Below are positions 3,882 through 58,151 of a DNA stretch of 64,000 nt, in pieces. This DNA is from Escherichia coli (GTDB lineage: Bacteria; Pseudomonadota; Gammaproteobacteria; Enterobacterales; Enterobacteriaceae). The stretch's first letter is position 1. Every line of letters begins with the position of its first letter. The translations under genes were made by a program, and so were the position numbers. The stretch lies in NCBI RefSeq assembly GCF_002854065.1, contig NZ_CP024147.1; one strand, written 5' to 3'. The notes beneath the pieces were generated by a model that ran no database searches, was not told the origin of the DNA, and was given only the letters and a program-made list of their open reading frames with translations.

Positions 3882-4406
3882 ATGACACAACCTCTTTTTC
3901 TGATCGGGCCTCGGGGCTGTGGTAAAACAACGGTCGGAATGGCCCTTGCCGATTCGCTTAACCGTCGGTTTGTCGATACCGATCAGTGGTTGCAATCACA
4001 GCTCAATATGACGGTCGCGGAGATCGTCGAAAGGGAAGAGTGGGCGGGATTTCGCGCCAGAGAAACGGCGGCGCTGGAAGCGGTAACTGCGCCATCCACC
4101 GTTATCGCTACAGGCGGCGGCATTATTCTGACGGAATTTAATCGTCACTTCATGAAAAATAACGGGATCGTGGTTTATTTGTGTGCGCCAGTATCAGTCC
4201 TGGTTAACCGACTGCAAGCTGCACCGGAAGAAGATTTACGGCCAACCTTAACGGGAAAACCGCTGAGCGAAGAAGTTCAGGAAGTGCTGGAAGAACGCGA
4301 TGCGCTATATCGCGAAGTTGCGCATATTATCATCGACGCAACAAACGAACCCAGCCAGGTGATTTCTGAAATTCGCAGCGCCCTGGCACAGACGATCAAT
4401 TGTTGA
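3882..4406 (+). CDS. aroL: shikimate kinase II
   Basis: [26 protein letters not shown]... Walker A motif; 174 aa. Confidence 0.95.
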
Positions 4407-4446
4407 TTTTCGAGCGCCTATACTTAACGTTCATCCCGTGAAATAA

Positions 4447-4647
<201 letters not shown>

Positions 4648-4904
4648 CCGCATCAGACTGCTCGGAAGGGATTCTGAGTGCCACTACAAGGGATCTGCGT
4701 CACATTTTTCATAATTCATGTTTTTCAAATAATTAGAATATTAAACAATAACAATCCATTACTGGAATCATTTGGAATCTTTACATTATGCCGTGCACGT
4801 CTGCTGCTACGCTTTTTGTCATTTGTAGCACAAGTAAGTGTCAGCAGTGGTGCTTAACACTTGCCCGGTAATTAACGACGAAATAAAAGTAAGGTGGAAG
4901 AACA

Positions 4905-5582
4905 ATGAGTGCGTCGTTGGCGATCCTGACCATCGGCATTGTACCTATGCAGGAAGTTTTGCCGCTCCTGACAGAATACATTGACGAAGATAATATTTCC
5001 CATCATAGCCTGCTGGGGAAGTTAAGCCGCGAAGAAGTGATGGCGGAGTACGCGCCAGAAGCAGGCGAAGACACAATTCTCACATTATTAAATGACAACC
5101 ATCTGGCCCATGTTTCGCGTCGCAAAGTAGAGCGTGACCTGCAAGGTGTGGTTGAAGTGCTCGATAATCAGGGCTACGACGTCATTATATTAATGAGTAC
5201 GGCAAACATTAGTAGTATGACTGCGCGTAATACGATCTTTCTTGAGCCGTCGCGGATATTGCCACCGCTGGTTTCCTCTATTGTTGAAGATCATCAGGTG
5301 GGGGTTATCGTACCGGTTGAGGAGTTGCTGACCGTTCAGGCGCAAAAATGGCAAATTTTGCAGAAACCGCCGGTATTTTCATTGGGTAACCCCATTCATG
5401 ATTCAGAACAAAAAATCATTGATGCCGGGAAAGAATTACTGGCGAAAGGCGCAGATGTCATCATGCTGGATTGTTTGGGATTTAACCAGCGTCATCGCGA
5501 TTTACTGCAAAAACAGCTCGATGTTCCTGTCTTGCTCTCTAACGTATTGATTGCACGGTTGGCTGCGGAATTACTGGTGTAA
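4905..5582 (+). CDS. aroM: AroM family protein
   Basis: 225-aa [25 protein letters not shown]...; RBS AAGGTGGAAG. Confidence 0.9.
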
Positions 5583-5653
5583 TTTTGCGTGACAGCCAGC
5601 GCCTCTGGCCCCTATAGTGAAGTAGATGTTCAACTACCAGACAGGGCCAGTTT

Positions 5654-5938
5654 ATGCTTCAAAGTAATGAGTACTTTTCCGGCAAAGTGAAATCGATCGG
5701 CTTTTCCAGCAGCAGCACTGGTCGCGCCAGCGTGGGTGTTATGGTTGAAGGCGAATACACCTTCAGCACCGCTGAGCCGGAAGAAATGACGGTAATCAGT
5801 GGCGCGCTGAATGTGTTACTGCCTGACGCGACCGACTGGCAAGTGTATGAAGCCGGTTCGGTGTTTAATGTTCCCGGTCACAGTGAGTTTCATCTGCAAG
5901 TTGCCGAACCCACCTCTTATCTGTGCCGCTATCTGTAA
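5654..5938 (+). CDS. ppnP: pyrimidine/purine nucleoside phosphorylase PpnP (YaiE)
   Basis: 94-aa [17 protein letters not shown]... matches YaiE/PpnP. Confidence 0.9.
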
Positions 5939-6292
5939 TTCCTCGCCTTCCCCTTGAACGGGAGGGCATTTTTCTGAAATATCCTCTCTTTAACCCATAA
6001 TAATATTTCCTTTGCTGCGATTTTTTCAATTTCCGATATATTCATAATTCATCAAGGTTGATATAAATATCATTGAAGATTATGAATAGAATTAATATAT
6101 TGGTCATCTGTATGGTCGTATTTTTTATGACTGGCAATGCATGCGCCACAGAGTGGATCAGTAGCGAGGAGCTTATCACCTCTGACTTTCATCTTATGAC
6201 GGCAGATGAGCGCAACGTGGTTAAAGCGGCAACCGACGATAGTATGGAAGCTGCTTATATGCTAAAAGATAATATCCGCTGGTATTATCATA

Positions 6293-6301
6293 ATGGTGAC
6301 C
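6293..6301. repeat. 9-bp target site duplication (ATGGTGACC), left copy
   Basis: Identical 9-mer immediately flanks both IS1 ends. Confidence 0.85.
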
Positions 6302-6356
6302 GGTGATGCTGCCAACTTACTGATTTAGTGTATGATGGTGTTTTTGAGGTGCTCCA

Positions 6357-6632
6357 GTGGCTTCTGTTTCTATCAGCTGTCCCTCCTGTTCAGCTACTGA
6401 CGGGGTGGTGCGTAACGGCAAAAGCACTGCCGGACATCAGCGCTATCTCTGCTCTCACTGCCGTAAAACATGGCAACTGCAGTTCACTTACACCGCTTCT
6501 CAACCCGGTACGCACCAGAAAATCATTGATATGGCCATGAATGGCGTTGGATGCCGGGCAACCGCCCGCATTATGGGCGTTGGCCTCAACACGATTTTCC
6601 GCCATTTAAAAAACTCAGGCCGCAGTCGGTAA
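6357..6632 (+). CDS. insA: IS1 InsA (transposition inhibitor / N-terminal part of transposase)
   Basis: [46 protein letters not shown]... ; GTG start. Confidence 0.95.
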
Positions 6633-7054
6633 CCTCGCGCATACAGCCGGGCAGTGACGTCATCGTCTGCGCGGAAATGGACGAACAGTGGGGATACGTC
6701 GGGGCTAAATCGCGCCAGCGCTGGCTGTTTTACGCGTATGACAGGCTCCGGAAGACGGTTGTTGCGCACGTATTCGGTGAACGCACTATGGCGACGCTGG
6801 GGCGTCTTATGAGCCTGCTGTCACCCTTTGACGTGGTGATATGGATGACGGATGGCTGGCCGCTGTATGAATCCCGCCTGAAGGGAAAGCTGCACGTAAT
6901 CAGCAAGCGATATACGCAGCGAATTGAGCGGCATAACCTGAATCTGAGGCAGCACCTGGCACGGCTGGGACGGAAGTCGCTGTCGTTCTCAAAATCGGTG
7001 GAGCTGCATGACAAAGTCATCGGGCATTATCTGAACATAAAACACTATCAATAA
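6551..7054 (+). CDS. insB: IS1 InsB' frame (expressed as InsAB' fusion by programmed -1 frameshift at the A6C motif near 6606-6615)
   Basis: ...[26 protein letters not shown]...HYLNIKHYQ* ; TTTAAAAAAC slippery run in insA/insB overlap. Confidence 0.9.
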
Positions 7055-49112: not shown

Positions 49113-50483
49113 TTATGCCTGGCGAATTGCCTGTTCAACATCAAAGCGATTCGTCACTTTGCTGTCGATTTTCACATAAGCTGAATGTTCTTCTTCTGCA
49201 ATCAACACTTCTTTGATGCCTTCAGTTTCTAGCAAACGCACTTTTAACGCCTCGTTTGCGGCAATGTTCGCCGGGATTTCAATGCGCAAGCTGCTGACAT
49301 ACGGCGGTTCTTTCATGGTACTGGCGACTGCCAGCCACACTGCGGCCAGCATTGCGCCAGCGAGAAATACGCCCTGACCGTCAAACATGCCGTCAATCCA
49401 GCCGCCCAGTGAACCGCCAATCGCCACGCCAAGAAACTGGCTGGTGGAGTAAACACCCATCGCCGTACCTTTGTAACCTGCTGGCGACTCTTTACTGATA
49501 AGTGAGGGCAGGAGGGCTTCCATCAAATTAAACGCCACAAAGAAAAGCTGCACGCCGACCACCAGTTGCCAGAACTGCGTTTGCGCGTTCCACAACACAA
49601 TTTCCGCAACCACGATCAACCCGACGCAGAAGACAAAGACTTGCTTCATTTTGCGCTTAACTTCAGCGTAGATAATGAAAGGCACGACCGAGCCAAAGGC
49701 GATTAGCATTGTCGCCAGATAGACCTTCCAGTGTTCAGCCGCCGGGAACCCCGCATCAGCCAGTTGTCCGGGCAGGGCAACAAACGTCGACATCAGCAAA
49801 ATATGCAGACACATAATGCCAAAGTTGAGTTTCAGCAGCCGCGGTTCCGCCAGCACTTTACTGAAACTGCCTTTCACCATTCCGGACTCACGATTAAGTA
49901 CGTGAGTGCTACTGTTGGGCACAACCCAAATGGTCAACGCAATGCCGGTCGTTGCCAGAATAGCGATCATCCAGAACAGCGCGTGCAGCCCAAGTTTGTG
50001 AGTGATGATCGGGCCAAGCACCATCGCAATGGCAAAGGTAATGCCAAAGCTCACGCCGATAAACGCCATTGCTTTGGTGCGGTTTTGTTCGCGCGTGAGA
50101 TCGGAAAGCAGCGCCATAACGGCAGCGGCAATCGCACCGGAGCCTTGTAGCGCCCGACCCAGAATAATTCCCCAGATGGAGTCAGAGAGCGCAGCGATAA
50201 CGCTACCGGCGGCAAACACTGCCAGCCCACCGACAATTAATGGTTTGCGACCAATGCGGTCGGAAAGCAGGCCAAACGGAATCTGAAAAACGGCCTGAGT
50301 CAGACCATAAATACCAATGGCAATACCGATTAATGCTTCGCTGGCACCTTGCAGAGCCATGCCGTACGTGGTCAGAACCGGCAGAACCATGAACATGCCC
50401 AGCATGCGCAACGAGAATACGGTCCCTAAACCCCAGGTCGCGCGCCGCTCACCTGGTGTCATTTTATAATCGTTCATTACCAC
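49113..50483 (-). CDS. yajR: MFS transporter YajR
   Basis: 456 aa, 12 TM-like segments, C-terminal soluble tail; MVMNDYKMTPGERRATWGLGTVFSLRMLGMFMVLPVL. Confidence 0.9.
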   Translation of the reverse strand: MVMNDYKMTPGERRATWGLGTVFSLRMLGMFMVLPVLTTYGMALQGASEALIGIAIGIYGLTQAVFQIPFGLLSDRIGRKPLIVGGLAVFAAGSVIAALSDSIWGIILGRALQGSGAIAAAVMALLSDLTREQNRTKAMAFIGVSFGITFAIAMVLGPIITHKLGLHALFWMIAILATTGIALTIWVVPNSSTHVLNRESGMVKGSFSKVLAEPRLLKLNFGIMCLHILLMSTFVALPGQLADAGFPAAEHWKVYLATMLIAFGSVVPFIIYAEVKRKMKQVFVFCVGLIVVAEIVLWNAQTQFWQLVVGVQLFFVAFNLMEALLPSLISKESPAGYKGTAMGVYSTSQFLGVAIGGSLGGWIDGMFDGQGVFLAGAMLAAVWLAVASTMKEPPYVSSLRIEIPANIAANEALKVRLLETEGIKEVLIAEEEHSAYVKIDSKVTNRFDVEQAIRQA

Positions 50484-50883
50484 CTCTTAAAAAAATGCCC
50501 ACATAGTGTAGTGCGGAGCGCATGTTGGGTAAACAGAGTGTTAATGAGAAAATATTACAGAGGAGAATAATTTGTGTGTCAGGTATGTTTTTTGCATTCA
50601 TAAAATGAATGCTCTATATGTTGAAAAAATGAATTTTAAAGCTAAATAGTTTTACATCAAAAAAATAATAATATCATTTCTTGATTACCATGTGCATTTT
50701 TTATCTTACGAATATGCTAGTTTTATCTTACTAAATAAACGATTTGGTGACATGGATGATAATGTTTCAGGCTAAATGTGTGCTTATTACTTGGGCCTTT
50801 ATGGCACTGTATTTATTCATTAAATGGATGTTTGGTGGTTAATTATTATGGAAGTATATGACAGTGAGGACATAAAGGTATAC

Positions 50884-51819
50884 ATGTTAACTAAAAGAAT
50901 ATTATTTTCTTTAATGCTAATAGTTTCACCAGGCGTGGTGGCAAGCGAGAAAGCGCATGAATTGTATGACAGCATATACGGTGGTCAACCTGCGCCCGAT
51001 GTTATAAATACACTGCATAAAATGGCTGAATTGGGAGATGTCGACGCGCAGAGCCTGTTAGGCTGGGAATATTATCAGCCTCGCTATGATACCAAACCTG
51101 ATGTTCAGGAAGCGATTAAATGGTTCGAGTTAGCCGCTAAACAAGGTGACAGAGAAGCTCCGTTAGCGCTGGGGAGTATCTACTACATCGGTGAGCTGGT
51201 GCGGGTGGATTATGCCAAAGCGTATGCACTATTTAATCAGGCCGCGCAATACGGTGTGAATTTAGCATGGTCCAGGTTGGGCATGATGTACGCCAATGGT
51301 CAGTATGTTGAGGTAGATTGTAAGAAAGCGAAGGAATATCTTGATAAAGGTGTCCACATTTATGGTGGTCCGGAAGACTTTCTGGCTACATGTCGAAAAG
51401 ACATGATTGACAGAAAAACGGTTGACGATACGTTACCCGTGATCACGGTTACCCGTTCTGGGATGCGGGATAATTTTTTAGATAAAGATTTTTCCTGCAT
51501 GGATAGCCTCTTCGCCACCACCAATAAATTAGGCGAAGTGGCCAATCTTCGCGTGACATTCAGCATTCGTAGCCCATCCGGTAAGGAGATTAACCAAACG
51601 GTTGGCTTCGCGCCTTTCGGTTTAAACCGGCTGAATATTAGCTTTACTGATTACATATTTGATTCATTTACCAGTAATTCGTCTCTAATTCTTTATAAAC
51701 CGGAATTTGAGCGAAAATCTTGTGCAACTGTAAGGACCACAATCGTTGCCGCAACGGCAACCATTAACGGCAAGGATGTGGAGTTGCTGAAAGCGGGGGC
51801 AATTGAACAAAAGTGGTAA
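50884..51819 (+). CDS. Sel1-repeat (TPR-like) secreted protein with uncharacterised C-terminal domain; accessory
   Basis: ATG at 50884 after AAAGG RBS; signal peptide MLTKRILFSLMLIVSPGVVASE; Sel1 repeats (DAQSLLGWEYY, AIKWFELAAKQGDREAPLALGSIYYIGELVRVDYAKAYALFNQAAQYG, LAWSRLGMMYANGQYVEVDCKKAKEYLDKG). Confidence 0.75.
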   Translation: MLTKRILFSLMLIVSPGVVASEKAHELYDSIYGGQPAPDVINTLHKMAELGDVDAQSLLGWEYYQPRYDTKPDVQEAIKWFELAAKQGDREAPLALGSIYYIGELVRVDYAKAYALFNQAAQYGVNLAWSRLGMMYANGQYVEVDCKKAKEYLDKGVHIYGGPEDFLATCRKDMIDRKTVDDTLPVITVTRSGMRDNFLDKDFSCMDSLFATTNKLGEVANLRVTFSIRSPSGKEINQTVGFAPFGLNRLNISFTDYIFDSFTSNSSLILYKPEFERKSCATVRTTIVAATATINGKDVELLKAGAIEQKW

Positions 51820-51874
51820 CGCTGCTCAGCCCCCGGCTAAGGCAAAACTTGCCCTGGCGGGTGGCGATAATAAT

Positions 51875-52417
51875 CTAAGCCGCGAGAATATGCTGAATCG
51901 CCAAAAACATAGGTACAGCACCAAAAGCATTTGGTGTCGCTGAAAGCTGAACAAAGCCGAGACGAGCATAAAAGTTAATGGCGGCAGGGTCAGCATCAAG
52001 ATAAACCCCTTTAATTGGTAATGCCTGGTGAATTATTTTTACATGTTCAAAAAAATCACATAGTAGGTCCTGACCAAAGCCCCGCTTTTGATACTTCCGC
52101 GCCACCCCCAACATGACTAATCTGACAACACCAATCTCTGAAGGCTGTGAACCCTGAAGGACGCCAGAAACGCGTTGTTTTTCCAGCGAATATGCCGTAA
52201 AAGTACAGATGCCAATCAGTTCACCACTTTGTCTGTCAATAAGTGCTTTAGCCGCACAGTCGCTATTACGCACACTTTTCTTTAGCGATGTGCGTACAAA
52301 TTTATCGATAACAGGGTTACCGCAATCAAACTGTTTTTGCCCAGGATAAGTAATATCAGACTGATAATTACAGGAGAGGACTATGGGCAGAGTAATCTCT
52401 TCATGCTTGTCGACCAT
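51875..52417 (-). CDS. GNAT-family acetyltransferase, predicted type II toxin (TacT/AtaT/ItaT-like)
   Basis: 180 aa; FDCG motif near N-terminus, acetyl-CoA motif QKRGFGQDLL; overlaps upstream RHH/DUF1778-like ORF by 17 nt. Confidence 0.8.
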   Translation of the reverse strand: MVDKHEEITLPIVLSCNYQSDITYPGQKQFDCGNPVIDKFVRTSLKKSVRNSDCAAKALIDRQSGELIGICTFTAYSLEKQRVSGVLQGSQPSEIGVVRLVMLGVARKYQKRGFGQDLLCDFFEHVKIIHQALPIKGVYLDADPAAINFYARLGFVQLSATPNAFGAVPMFLAIQHILAA

Positions 52418-52712
52418 CGCTGTTTTTCCTTTTCATTAACGCCTTGAGTGCGAGCGTCGGTTGAGCAGGTTCGGCGATGAGTTGGTTCATCAGTTCCCAG
52501 CTTTGATTCGAAAGCTCACGGCGACGTTGGTTATCAAGCACGCTTTCGGCGCGTTCCATAGCAGCGCTCAAAATAAAGGCGCTTAAATCTAACCCAACGG
52601 CTTGCGCAGCTTCACGAAGTCTGTTTTTGGCGTCGGGACTGGTTTTGAGTTCAACCCGCGCATTTTTCAGCGTTTTATCGACATCGGGTAGAGTGGCTGT
52701 TTTTCCAGGCAT
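52401..52712 (-). CDS. predicted antitoxin (DUF1778 / ribbon-helix-helix-like) of the GNAT toxin
   Basis: 103 aa from ATG at 52710-52712 with AAGAGG RBS; MPGKTATLPDVDKTLKNARVELKTSPDAKNRLREAAQAVGLDLSAFILSAAMERAESVL; track ORF extends further upstream (52778) but lacks RBS. Confidence 0.7.
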   Translation of the reverse strand: MPGKTATLPDVDKTLKNARVELKTSPDAKNRLREAAQAVGLDLSAFILSAAMERAESVLDNQRRRELSNQSWELMNQLIAEPAQPTLALKALMKRKNSDGRQA

Positions 52713-52765
52713 TGTGACCTCTTTGATTAACTGAATGAAATCGTAGGGAGTCGATCTCATACATA

Positions 52766-52784
52766 ATACGGCTATCAACCGTAT
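52766..52784. promoter_or_regulatory. operator-like palindrome 1 upstream of the toxin-antitoxin operon
   Basis: atacgg ctatcaa ccgtat (ATACGG-N7-CCGTAT). Confidence 0.4.
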
Positions 52785-52819
52785 GATTAATTTATGTGCA
52801 TCTGCTCACTCTGTCAAGA

Positions 52820-52840
52820 GATACGGTTATTAGCCGTATC
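52820..52840. promoter_or_regulatory. operator-like palindrome 2 upstream of the toxin-antitoxin operon
   Basis: gatacgg ttattag ccgtatc (GATACGG-N7-CCGTATC), same half-site as palindrome 1. Confidence 0.4.
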
Positions 52841-52854
52841 TCTGATCTCAGACA

Positions 52855-52884
52855 ATAAAAAAGGTGCCGTAGCACCTTTTTAAT
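52855..52884. terminator. bidirectional hairpin terminator downstream of cyoE
   Basis: aaaaaa ggtgc cgta gcacc ttttt. Confidence 0.55.
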
Positions 52885-52896
52885 AGAGAGGTTTTG

Positions 52897-53787
52897 TTAC
52901 CACACAGCAGCCAGCAGCGTATGCGAGTCCGGTACCATAAAATCAACGGACATCATCACCGAGAGGGCAGTGATGGCGATGATAGAGAAGCCGAACAGCT
53001 TGCGCGCCCAGATTCTGTCATCAGCAACCTTATAACCGCGCAGGGCCATACCTAACCACCAGACGCTCACCGCCGCGGCGACCACCAGATATTTATATCC
53101 AGCGTAACCGCCAAGAGAGAGCATCAGCGTGGCAACGGCAAAGGCGATGATATACAGCGTGATGTGATTCTTCGCCACCGAAATGCCTTTTACCACTGGC
53201 AATACCGGAATGTTTGCCGCCTGGTAATCCTTAAAGCGGAAAATGGCGATGGCATAGGAGTGAGGCATCTGCCACAGGCTGAAGATAGCCAGCAGGATCG
53301 CTGCGCCGCTATCGAACTCGCCGGTTACTGCACAGTAGCCAATCACCGGCGGCGCAGCGCCGGAGAGCGAACCAATCAATGTGCCGTAGACTGAGTGGCG
53401 TTTCATGTACAGGCTATAAACGCCGACATAAACCACAAAGCCCATCACCCCCAGCCAGCAGGCCAGCGGATTCGCGCCAAACCACAGCAGCATAAAGCCA
53501 GCAATACCCAGCAAGGTGGCGTACACCAGCGAGACAGCAGGAGAGATCAGGCCTTTAACCAGCACCCGATTCTTCGTCCTTTCCATCTTTCTGTCGATAT
53601 CCCTGTCGATGTAGTTGTTAAACACACAACCCGACGCCACAACCAGTGACACCCCAACCAGCGTGTAGATAAACAGGGGATAATCAATGCTGCCCTTTGA
53701 GGCCAGCAGGAATCCCCCAATCACCGAGATCAGGTTGCCAAAGATGATGCCTGGTTTCGTTACTTGCAGGTATTGCTTAAACATCAT
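52897..53787 (-). CDS. cyoE: protoheme IX farnesyltransferase (heme O synthase)
   Basis: [32 protein letters not shown]... 296 aa; start trimmed to ATG at 53785-53787. Confidence 0.95.
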
Positions 53788-53798
53788 AACCGCCGCTC

Positions 53799-56735
<2,937 letters not shown>

Positions 56736-56744
56736 TCAACCCCT

Positions 56745-57695
<951 letters not shown>

Positions 57696-58151
57696 ACGAC
57701 CTCAATTCCACGGGATCTGGTGGCGTTTAAAGTGTGTGGGCATTTTACGGGAAGGTTACATTACTGTAAACATGATTAAATTCCTGTTACTTGGATTTGG
57801 CTGTCAGGTCACATATGTTGCAAAACATATCAGGTTGATTTTAAGAAGCTGTTGCAAAAGGGCGTTATAACAAAAGGGGAGTGCAGAAGGAGTCTGGGCG
57901 GGCAATTGGTATAACCAATGCGAAATAAAACAATTATTTAACAAATAATTATCATTGGAGTGACAACTGGGTGGTGAGAAAATAAAGACTCATTAGCTGA
58001 ATCGTGTAAGAAAAATAGAATTTATAAATGGCGCCAATAATTTCCAAACGCTAAGCCGCACAAAAGAACAAATATTAATAAGCGATGCTGATGTTTATTT
58101 AGCCGTAATAATTACGGCGAGTGATTACTACAGCTAAATAATATTTACAGA

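Follow-up and report, generated by a model that had tools for sequence, protein, structure and literature searches.

The sequence analysed here, referred to as the window, is a stretch of 64,000 nucleotides of the Escherichia coli chromosome (contig NZ_CP024147.1, assembly GCF_002854065.1) with the gene order yajL-panE-yajQ-yajR, insert, cyoE-cyoD-cyoC-cyoB. The insert, whose limits were set by comparing the window with the yajR-cyoE region of K-12 by blastn, is a low-GC segment of 2,290 bp (positions 50564 to 52853) that carries the gene studied in this work together with the toxin-antitoxin pair itaRT. This gene (50884 to 51819, plus strand) encodes a protein of 311 residues plus the stop codon, in which a leader peptide and Sel1 repeats are followed by a C-terminal domain whose predicted structure resembles IrmA (interleukin receptor mimic protein A; c1275/c3665 of strain CFT073; PDB 5EK5; Pfam PF18673), a secreted fibronectin type III (FNIII)-like protein of uropathogenic E. 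coli. With a probability of roughly 0.6, the product was considered to be a Sec-exported, non-enzymatic, two-domain binding protein whose beta-sandwich is remotely related to IrmA.

The window protein was an exact match to the RefSeq entry WP_032280441.1, which bears the name “tetratricopeptide repeat protein”, and the region was 100% identical in E. coli CUWW06. The gene is real, being conserved across genera with ratios of nonsynonymous to synonymous substitution rates (dN/dS) of 0.11–0.24. The open reading frame (ORF) extends from 50824 to 51819 on the plus strand, and the start codon given by RefSeq is the ATG at 50884, which is preceded by AAGG 6 nt on its 5′ side. The ATG at 50824, which would give a protein of 331 residues and is used as the start in some UniProt entries, was rejected because the homologues start at 50884 (the equivalent methionine is the start in 12 of the 12 aligned) and because the 20 additional residues would precede a typical signal peptide.

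The same E. coli protein is called “putative zinc-dependent hydrolase” in the AFDB50 entries A0A0H3MM38, A0A376ZPS8 and A0A376P1S9, one of these UniProt versions having 331 residues and apparently using the upstream ATG (50824). This name looks like an annotation error, since the analysis turned up no hydrolase signature. For the homologues, the precomputed Pfam annotations listed Sel1 alone, and literature searches with the locus tag, with yajR/cyoE/Sel1 or with IrmA plus Sel1 yielded no paper on the gene. Databases already list the gene under generic names, and its Sel1 plus IrmA-like architecture appears undescribed; the novelty is a new combination of known domains and a better annotation, and not a new mechanism or system.

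The leader peptide and the Sel1 module

The first 20 residues (50884 to 50943, plus strand; MLTKRILFSLMLIVSPGVVA, followed by SE) were read by eye as a signal peptide, with an n-region MLTKR, a hydrophobic core and the sequence VVA before SE, and this n-h-c pattern was kept in the aligned homologues. Residues 1–17 had a low predicted local distance difference test score (pLDDT) in the full-length structural model. The leader looks like one of the signal peptidase I type and has no lipobox cysteine.

Three Sel1 repeats (PF08238) were detected by Pfam within residues 54–155 (51043 to 51348, plus strand), at residues 54–89 (E-value 4.2e-7), 95–122 (0.019) and 131–155 (0.0021), which qualifies the region as a tandem repeat. 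Hence, the first-pass annotation, which had described at least three Sel1-type repeats after a signal peptide, was borne out by the three Pfam repeats and the leader read by eye. The best sequence match in the PDB was EsiB/c5321 (4bwr; phmmer E-value 7.3e-41), and the phmmer search against the PDB returned only Sel1 proteins (EsiB/c5321, SEL1L, HcpC, AlgK and others), all of them within residues 25–170. Weak NCBIfam matches to MerG, MotX, AlgK and ExoR were also confined to the repeat region. The full-length AlphaFold2 model (pLDDT 84.5; predicted template modelling score 0.82) contained eight helices forming four hairpins over residues 40–178, mostly with pLDDT above 90, and predicted an alpha/alpha solenoid for approximately residues 40–160.

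The last helix hairpin and the linker helix correspond to residues 146–178 (51319 to 51417, plus strand), with modelled helices at residues 146–155 and 166–178. In alignment A1, residues C146, C170, D173 and R177 of this segment were invariant, and the linker motif C170-x-x-D173-x-x-x-R177 was conserved. A disulfide between C146 and C170 would staple the cap helix.

The succession of a signal peptide, here putative, and Sel1 alpha/alpha repeats resembles that of EsiB/c5321 (4BWR) and of HcpB/HcpC, LpnE, AlgK, MotX and ExoR. The repeats number three to four here, whereas EsiB (467 residues) was matched in five stretches. None of these proteins is known to carry an IrmA-like beta domain.

The C-terminal domain and its resemblance to IrmA

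The approximately 150 C-terminal residues had been described as unrecognised. At the level of the sequence libraries this description stood: past approximately residue 160, no significant match was obtained in Pfam, NCBIfam, PADLOC or the PDB, the latter being searched with the single sequence and with a profile. Both its extent and the statement that it matches nothing known had to be revised. The beta domain proper covers about 125 residues (184–311; 51433 to 51816, plus strand), and approximately 150 are reached only when the linker helix is counted. It opens with the conserved pair L184-P185 and contains the near-invariant cysteines C205 and C280, as well as the motifs TNKLGEVANLRV, FxPFGxN and AATATINGK. 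In the full-length model and in a separate model of the C-terminal part (pLDDT 81.3) it was predicted as a beta-sandwich of 7–8 strands, of the immunoglobulin (Ig)/FNIII type. At the level of prediction, this fold can be considered secure.

IrmA (5ek5_B) ranked first when the C-terminal domain was compared with the PDB by Foldseek (E-value 3.4e-4) and was the sole match at or below 1e-3. Two independent structure methods each placed IrmA at the top, well separated from the match that followed. Furthermore, irmA was taken from CFT073, an IrmA family alignment was built and the profiles were compared with hhalign. An E-value of 0.0031 over 78 columns was obtained, and C205 and C280 were placed on C46 and C105 of the IrmA precursor, equivalent to C21 and C80 of the mature protein; a strand with the pattern A-T-x-x-x-N-G was also aligned. 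In IrmA, C21 and C80 form a disulfide inside the domain, which is unusual for FNIII domains (PMC4807369), and by this alignment the conserved cysteine pair of the window protein would be its counterpart. Additionally, the Pfam IrmA model (PF18673) matched two of 18 relatives at or below 1e-3, the best of them at 6.4e-5. Like IrmA, the window protein has a putative signal peptide, and both families are accessory and largely confined to Enterobacterales.

Several observations weigh against the reading of the product as a binding protein with an IrmA-related sandwich. The structures are predictions built on shallow alignments of 13 and 18 sequences. The hhalign probability of the match to IrmA was just 10%, and the window protein itself stayed below the Pfam threshold, its match to the IrmA model (residues 106–144 of the C-terminal fragment) having an E-value of 1.6. 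Sequence identity to IrmA was approximately 18–22%. Searches between the two families did not cross-detect: a hidden Markov model (HMM) of close IrmA homologues retrieved nothing but IrmA itself from the members of the family and 4,416 background ORFs, and in the opposite direction the C-terminal profile recovered its own family and not IrmA. No IrmA match was obtained when the distant members P0053 and P0047 were scanned singly with Pfam. Additionally, no neighbour was common across the genera examined, and the neighbourhoods gave no functional clue.

The weak Pfam and hhalign scores and the failure of the two families to detect each other would be expected if the resemblance were one of analogy and not of homology, the domain being a family-specific Ig-like sandwich for which IrmA is by chance the best superposition; in that case, knowledge of IrmA could not be transferred to the C-terminal domain. 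This explanation is somewhat unlikely, considering the first rank of IrmA by both structure methods, the alignment of both disulfide cysteines and of the A-T-x-x-x-N-G strand, the Pfam match of one relative at 6.4e-5 and the shared concentration in Enterobacterales. Remote homology of the C-terminal domain to IrmA is therefore regarded as probable, not proven.

The two proteins also differ in their organisation. IrmA is a stand-alone protein of approximately 130 mature residues, whereas in the window protein the domain follows Sel1 repeats in the same chain. The C-terminal tail that is swapped in the IrmA dimer is much shorter here, with about 9 residues past the aligned region against about 22 in IrmA, which argues against an identical swap. 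The irmA gene lies downstream of agn43-yeeR in pathogenicity islands, in contrast to the yajR-cyoE location of the window gene. In the island PAI-CFT073-serX (L003:39724-41438), a gene for a “SEL1-like repeat protein” of 378 residues is followed by one for a hypothetical protein of 180 residues, approximately 10 kb upstream of agn43-yeeR-irmA.

Distribution of the family and the yajR-cyoE locus

An exhaustive phmmer search with residues 161–311 among 1.84 billion cluster representatives gave 23 matches at or below 1e-3, two of which were eukaryote-like repeat artefacts. The domain was located C-terminal to Sel1 repeats in every full-length protein recovered. Among 80 Sel1 loci drawn from genome collections, the eight full-length loci of the family (L010–L017) were the only ones that the C-terminal profile matched; past the first eight loci, the locus search with alignment A1 returned mostly unrelated Sel1 proteins. 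The protein search with alignment A2 yielded fragments only and no Salmonella members. The C-terminal domain is a rare, dedicated, accessory family. The fold class is common and the domain family is not, so the domain did not resolve into a housekeeping fold with conserved core distribution.

The homologue of E. albertii was 82% identical. Members were also found in the plant-associated Pectobacterium and Affinibrenneria and in Pseudocitrobacter, and the AFDB50 matches added Salmonella, E. fergusonii, Morganella, Proteus and Achromobacter. Long forms of approximately 390–620 residues (Pseudocitrobacter, Pectobacterium, Affinibrenneria, Salmonella, E. fergusonii, Morganella and Achromobacter) share the C-terminal domain, the motifs TNKLGE[VI]ANLR and AATAxxNG, the cysteine pair and the linker C-x-x-D-x-x-x-R, and differ in having further Sel1 repeats at the N-terminus and a helical insertion. 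The form of approximately 310 residues, present in Escherichia and Pseudocitrobacter, is the shortest version of the family.

Within E. coli, the gene was carried by 1,363–1,371 of 5,426 complete genomes (approximately 25%), including those of E. coli B/BL21, C, HS and O111:H8, and at least 80% of the region 50400–52950 was held by 1,367 of the 5,426. The gene is accessory and absent from K-12; at the position of the insert K-12 has 17 bp, and yajR and cyoE are separated by 148 bp. An IS1 element was found inside the island in strain 100416 (the E. coli genome hits H2 and H49 are disrupted-copy cases), and partial ORFs with the C-terminal part only were common in Shigella sonnei (clusters P0014 and P0015, which also include others; 377 member sequences). 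These disrupted and partial copies point to repeated loss of the function of the gene.

The GC content was 44.4% for the gene, approximately 53% for the flanking genes and 50.3% for the whole window. The upstream region (50484 to 50883, plus strand) had a GC content of 30.2%, so it is AT-rich as first described, and contained predicted sigma-70-like sites at 50544–50571 and 50621–50650. The counterpart of this region in Escherichia sp. MOD1-EC7003, a member of an Escherichia cryptic clade, showed approximately 92% identity. A tandem 22-nt direct repeat (ATGTGCATTTTTTATCTTACGA / ATATGCTAGTTTTATCTTACTA) was observed at 50690–50733, approximately 150–190 bp 5′ of the start of the Sel1 gene, and is largely kept in the cryptic clade; it could be the binding site of a regulator. 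Binding of H-NS is plausible for DNA of 30% GC. An Rfam scan of positions 48000–54000 found no RNA family. Elsewhere in the window, the GC content fell to 0.39–0.45 at approximately 57400–58000, beyond the cyo operon.

The same position between yajR and cyoE is occupied by the gene in the cryptic-clade genome (MOD1-EC7003, locus L010), with other cargo in place of itaRT. There, itaRT is replaced (L010:4127-5829) by an ORF of 315 residues (4812–5759), which by eye resembles an M20-type amidohydrolase, and by other ORFs. In Pseudocitrobacter the order was yajR, a long paralogue, the short orthologue (59% identity), itaT, itaR and cyoE. The tandem paralogues of this genus (L008:4542-6927 and L011:~4200-6655) consist of a long protein (approximately 480–500 residues) and a short one (308 residues), both with the C-terminal domain; in L008, itaT is truncated, matching residues 11–89 only, and itaR is intact. 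Another contig of the Pseudocitrobacter type had the long form alone beside cyoE. The gene of Pectobacterium and Affinibrenneria lies elsewhere, downstream of a DJ-1/AraC-type regulator. This regulator, upstream of the gene in the two Pectobacteriaceae loci examined (L005 and L012), was the sole recurring neighbour and may simply reflect family synteny. The yajR-cyoE slot seems to be a hotspot whose cargo varies.

The first-pass annotation had interpreted the AT-rich region as silenced foreign DNA. Since the same gene is present at yajR-cyoE in the Escherichia cryptic clade and in Pseudocitrobacter, the locus is better understood as old and variably retained than as a recent import. An old, AT-rich, variably retained accessory slot fits the data better, and “recently acquired foreign DNA” is too strong a description.

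The gene had a dN/dS of 0.24 (dN 0.079) against the orthologue of the Escherichia cryptic clade, compared with 0.046 for yajR and 0.029 for cyoE. Between E. coli and Pseudocitrobacter, the protein identity was 59% for the gene product, 91% for ItaT, 92% for CyoE and 85% for YajR. The gene is functional and under purifying selection, but its rate of evolution is several times that of the adjoining genes. Fast evolution is common for exported accessory proteins.

The remaining genes of the insert are both on the minus strand. The itaT gene (51875 to 52417) encodes a GNAT-type toxin that matched E. coli ItaT (PDB 7byy) over residues 1–180 with a phmmer E-value of 1.6e-117. The upstream itaR gene (52401 to 52712) overlaps it by 17 nt and encodes an antitoxin of the DUF1778/TacA ribbon-helix-helix (RHH) type, as indicated by RefSeq, by weak RelB and MobA RHH matches and by a match of PF08681 (TacA1) on the Pseudocitrobacter orthologue. 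With a toxin nearly identical to the characterised ItaT over its full length and an overlapping upstream RHH antitoxin gene, the pair was identified as ItaRT. The itaT gene is convergent with the Sel1 gene, 55 bp separating the two stop codons. The itaRT genes have been located in E. coli HS and in BL21(DE3), where they are ECD_00377-00378, and cloned ItaRT functions and autoregulates alone (PMC6125619). Two 19-nt palindromic sites (ATACGGCTATCAACCGTAT and ATACGGTTATTAGCCGTAT; 89% complementary) were observed within 52766–52839, flanking a sigma-70-like promoter at 52817–52789 that agrees in 10 of 12 positions. These sites are probably the ItaR/ItaRT operator.

Proposed function and alternative explanations

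No relevant catalytic or defence match was obtained in NCBIfam or PADLOC. A non-enzymatic binding role is proposed for the protein, because no catalytic domain was detected and both of its modules are known only as scaffolds for binding proteins or ligands. The protein would be exported to the periplasm and its Sec-type leader cleaved off. There, the pairs C146/C170 and C205/C280 suggest oxidative folding, and their disulfides would be formed in a DsbA-dependent manner. A short Sel1 alpha-solenoid, predicted to have three canonical repeats and a capping hairpin, would be joined by the cysteine-containing helix to the beta-sandwich, and the two domains would pack as a fixed, rigid scaffold. Most likely, such a scaffold would bind or adapt a partner, be it within the periplasm, on the surface of the cell or outside it in the medium, and the motifs TNKLGEVANLR and FxPFG, invariant in loops and strands of the beta domain, are the best candidates for the contact surface. 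The participation in host or protein-protein interactions that had been suggested at first would agree with this role by analogy with the domain families.

Another explanation is that the protein is released as a host-directed decoy or virulence factor and binds mammalian immune proteins, as IrmA and EsiB do. The closest characterised relatives of its two parts are indeed EsiB for the Sel1 part, which reportedly binds secretory immunoglobulin A, and IrmA for the beta domain, which binds interleukins IL-2, IL-4 and IL-10 in vitro. The signal peptide, the faster evolution relative to the neighbours and the AT-rich putative promoter region, a feature of many horizontally regulated virulence genes, would also suit such a factor. 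Nevertheless, E. coli B, C and HS, which are laboratory or commensal strains, carry the gene, and the existence of relatives in Pectobacterium, Affinibrenneria, Pseudocitrobacter, Achromobacter and Morganella argues against a mammal-specific ligand. Moreover, the groove of the domain-swapped dimer may not form with a tail of approximately 9 residues after the IrmA-aligned region, compared with approximately 22 in IrmA, and the dN/dS is well below 1. A decoy function is consequently unlikely.

The protein could alternatively be an orphan periplasmic immunity protein, protecting against an interbacterial toxin such as a type VI effector. Some periplasmic Sel1-repeat proteins are said to act as immunity proteins, and a fast-evolving, putatively exported Sel1 protein that is present in some strains and absent from others, and that is encoded in a variable locus beside a toxin-antitoxin pair, would resemble them; the tandem long and short paralogues of Pseudocitrobacter are also reminiscent of an immunity-gene array. 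Nevertheless, this proposal draws on analogy only, no adjacent effector, Hcp, VgrG, PAAR, Rhs or contact-dependent inhibition (CDI) gene was present in the contexts examined, and the searches revealed no resemblance to known immunity families. Hence, an immunity role is judged quite improbable.

Finally, a three-gene functional module in which the protein would, for instance, sense or trigger ItaRT was rejected as highly improbable: the gene adjoins itaT in both E. coli and Pseudocitrobacter, but the two genes are convergent, which precludes co-transcription, the Sel1 protein would be exported and the ItaRT proteins stay in the cytoplasm, L006, L010, Pectobacterium and Affinibrenneria have the gene but lack itaRT beside it, the cloned pair works by itself, and the Sel1 gene and itaT have different histories, as their products differ in identity between genera (59% vs 91%).

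The recognition of an IrmA-like fold provides the first structural annotation of the C-terminal half of a protein encoded in about one-quarter of the complete E. coli genomes. A further conjecture, doubtful for the moment, is that Sel1 plus IrmA-like proteins may constitute an unnamed family of exported envelope proteins, centred on Enterobacterales and reaching Achromobacter as an outlier, whose ancestral ligand-binding module would be the IrmA-type sandwich. If so, stand-alone IrmA would be a derived fragment of the Sel1 plus IrmA-like lineage, and the role of these proteins would be a bacterial one, such as orphan immunity, the blocking of phage or colicin receptors or an envelope adaptor, instead of cytokine mimicry. 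The resemblance described here extends the IrmA fold from a small, island-encoded protein of pathogens to commensal, plant-associated and environmental bacteria. Given this wider spread, cytokine binding may not be the native role of the IrmA fold.

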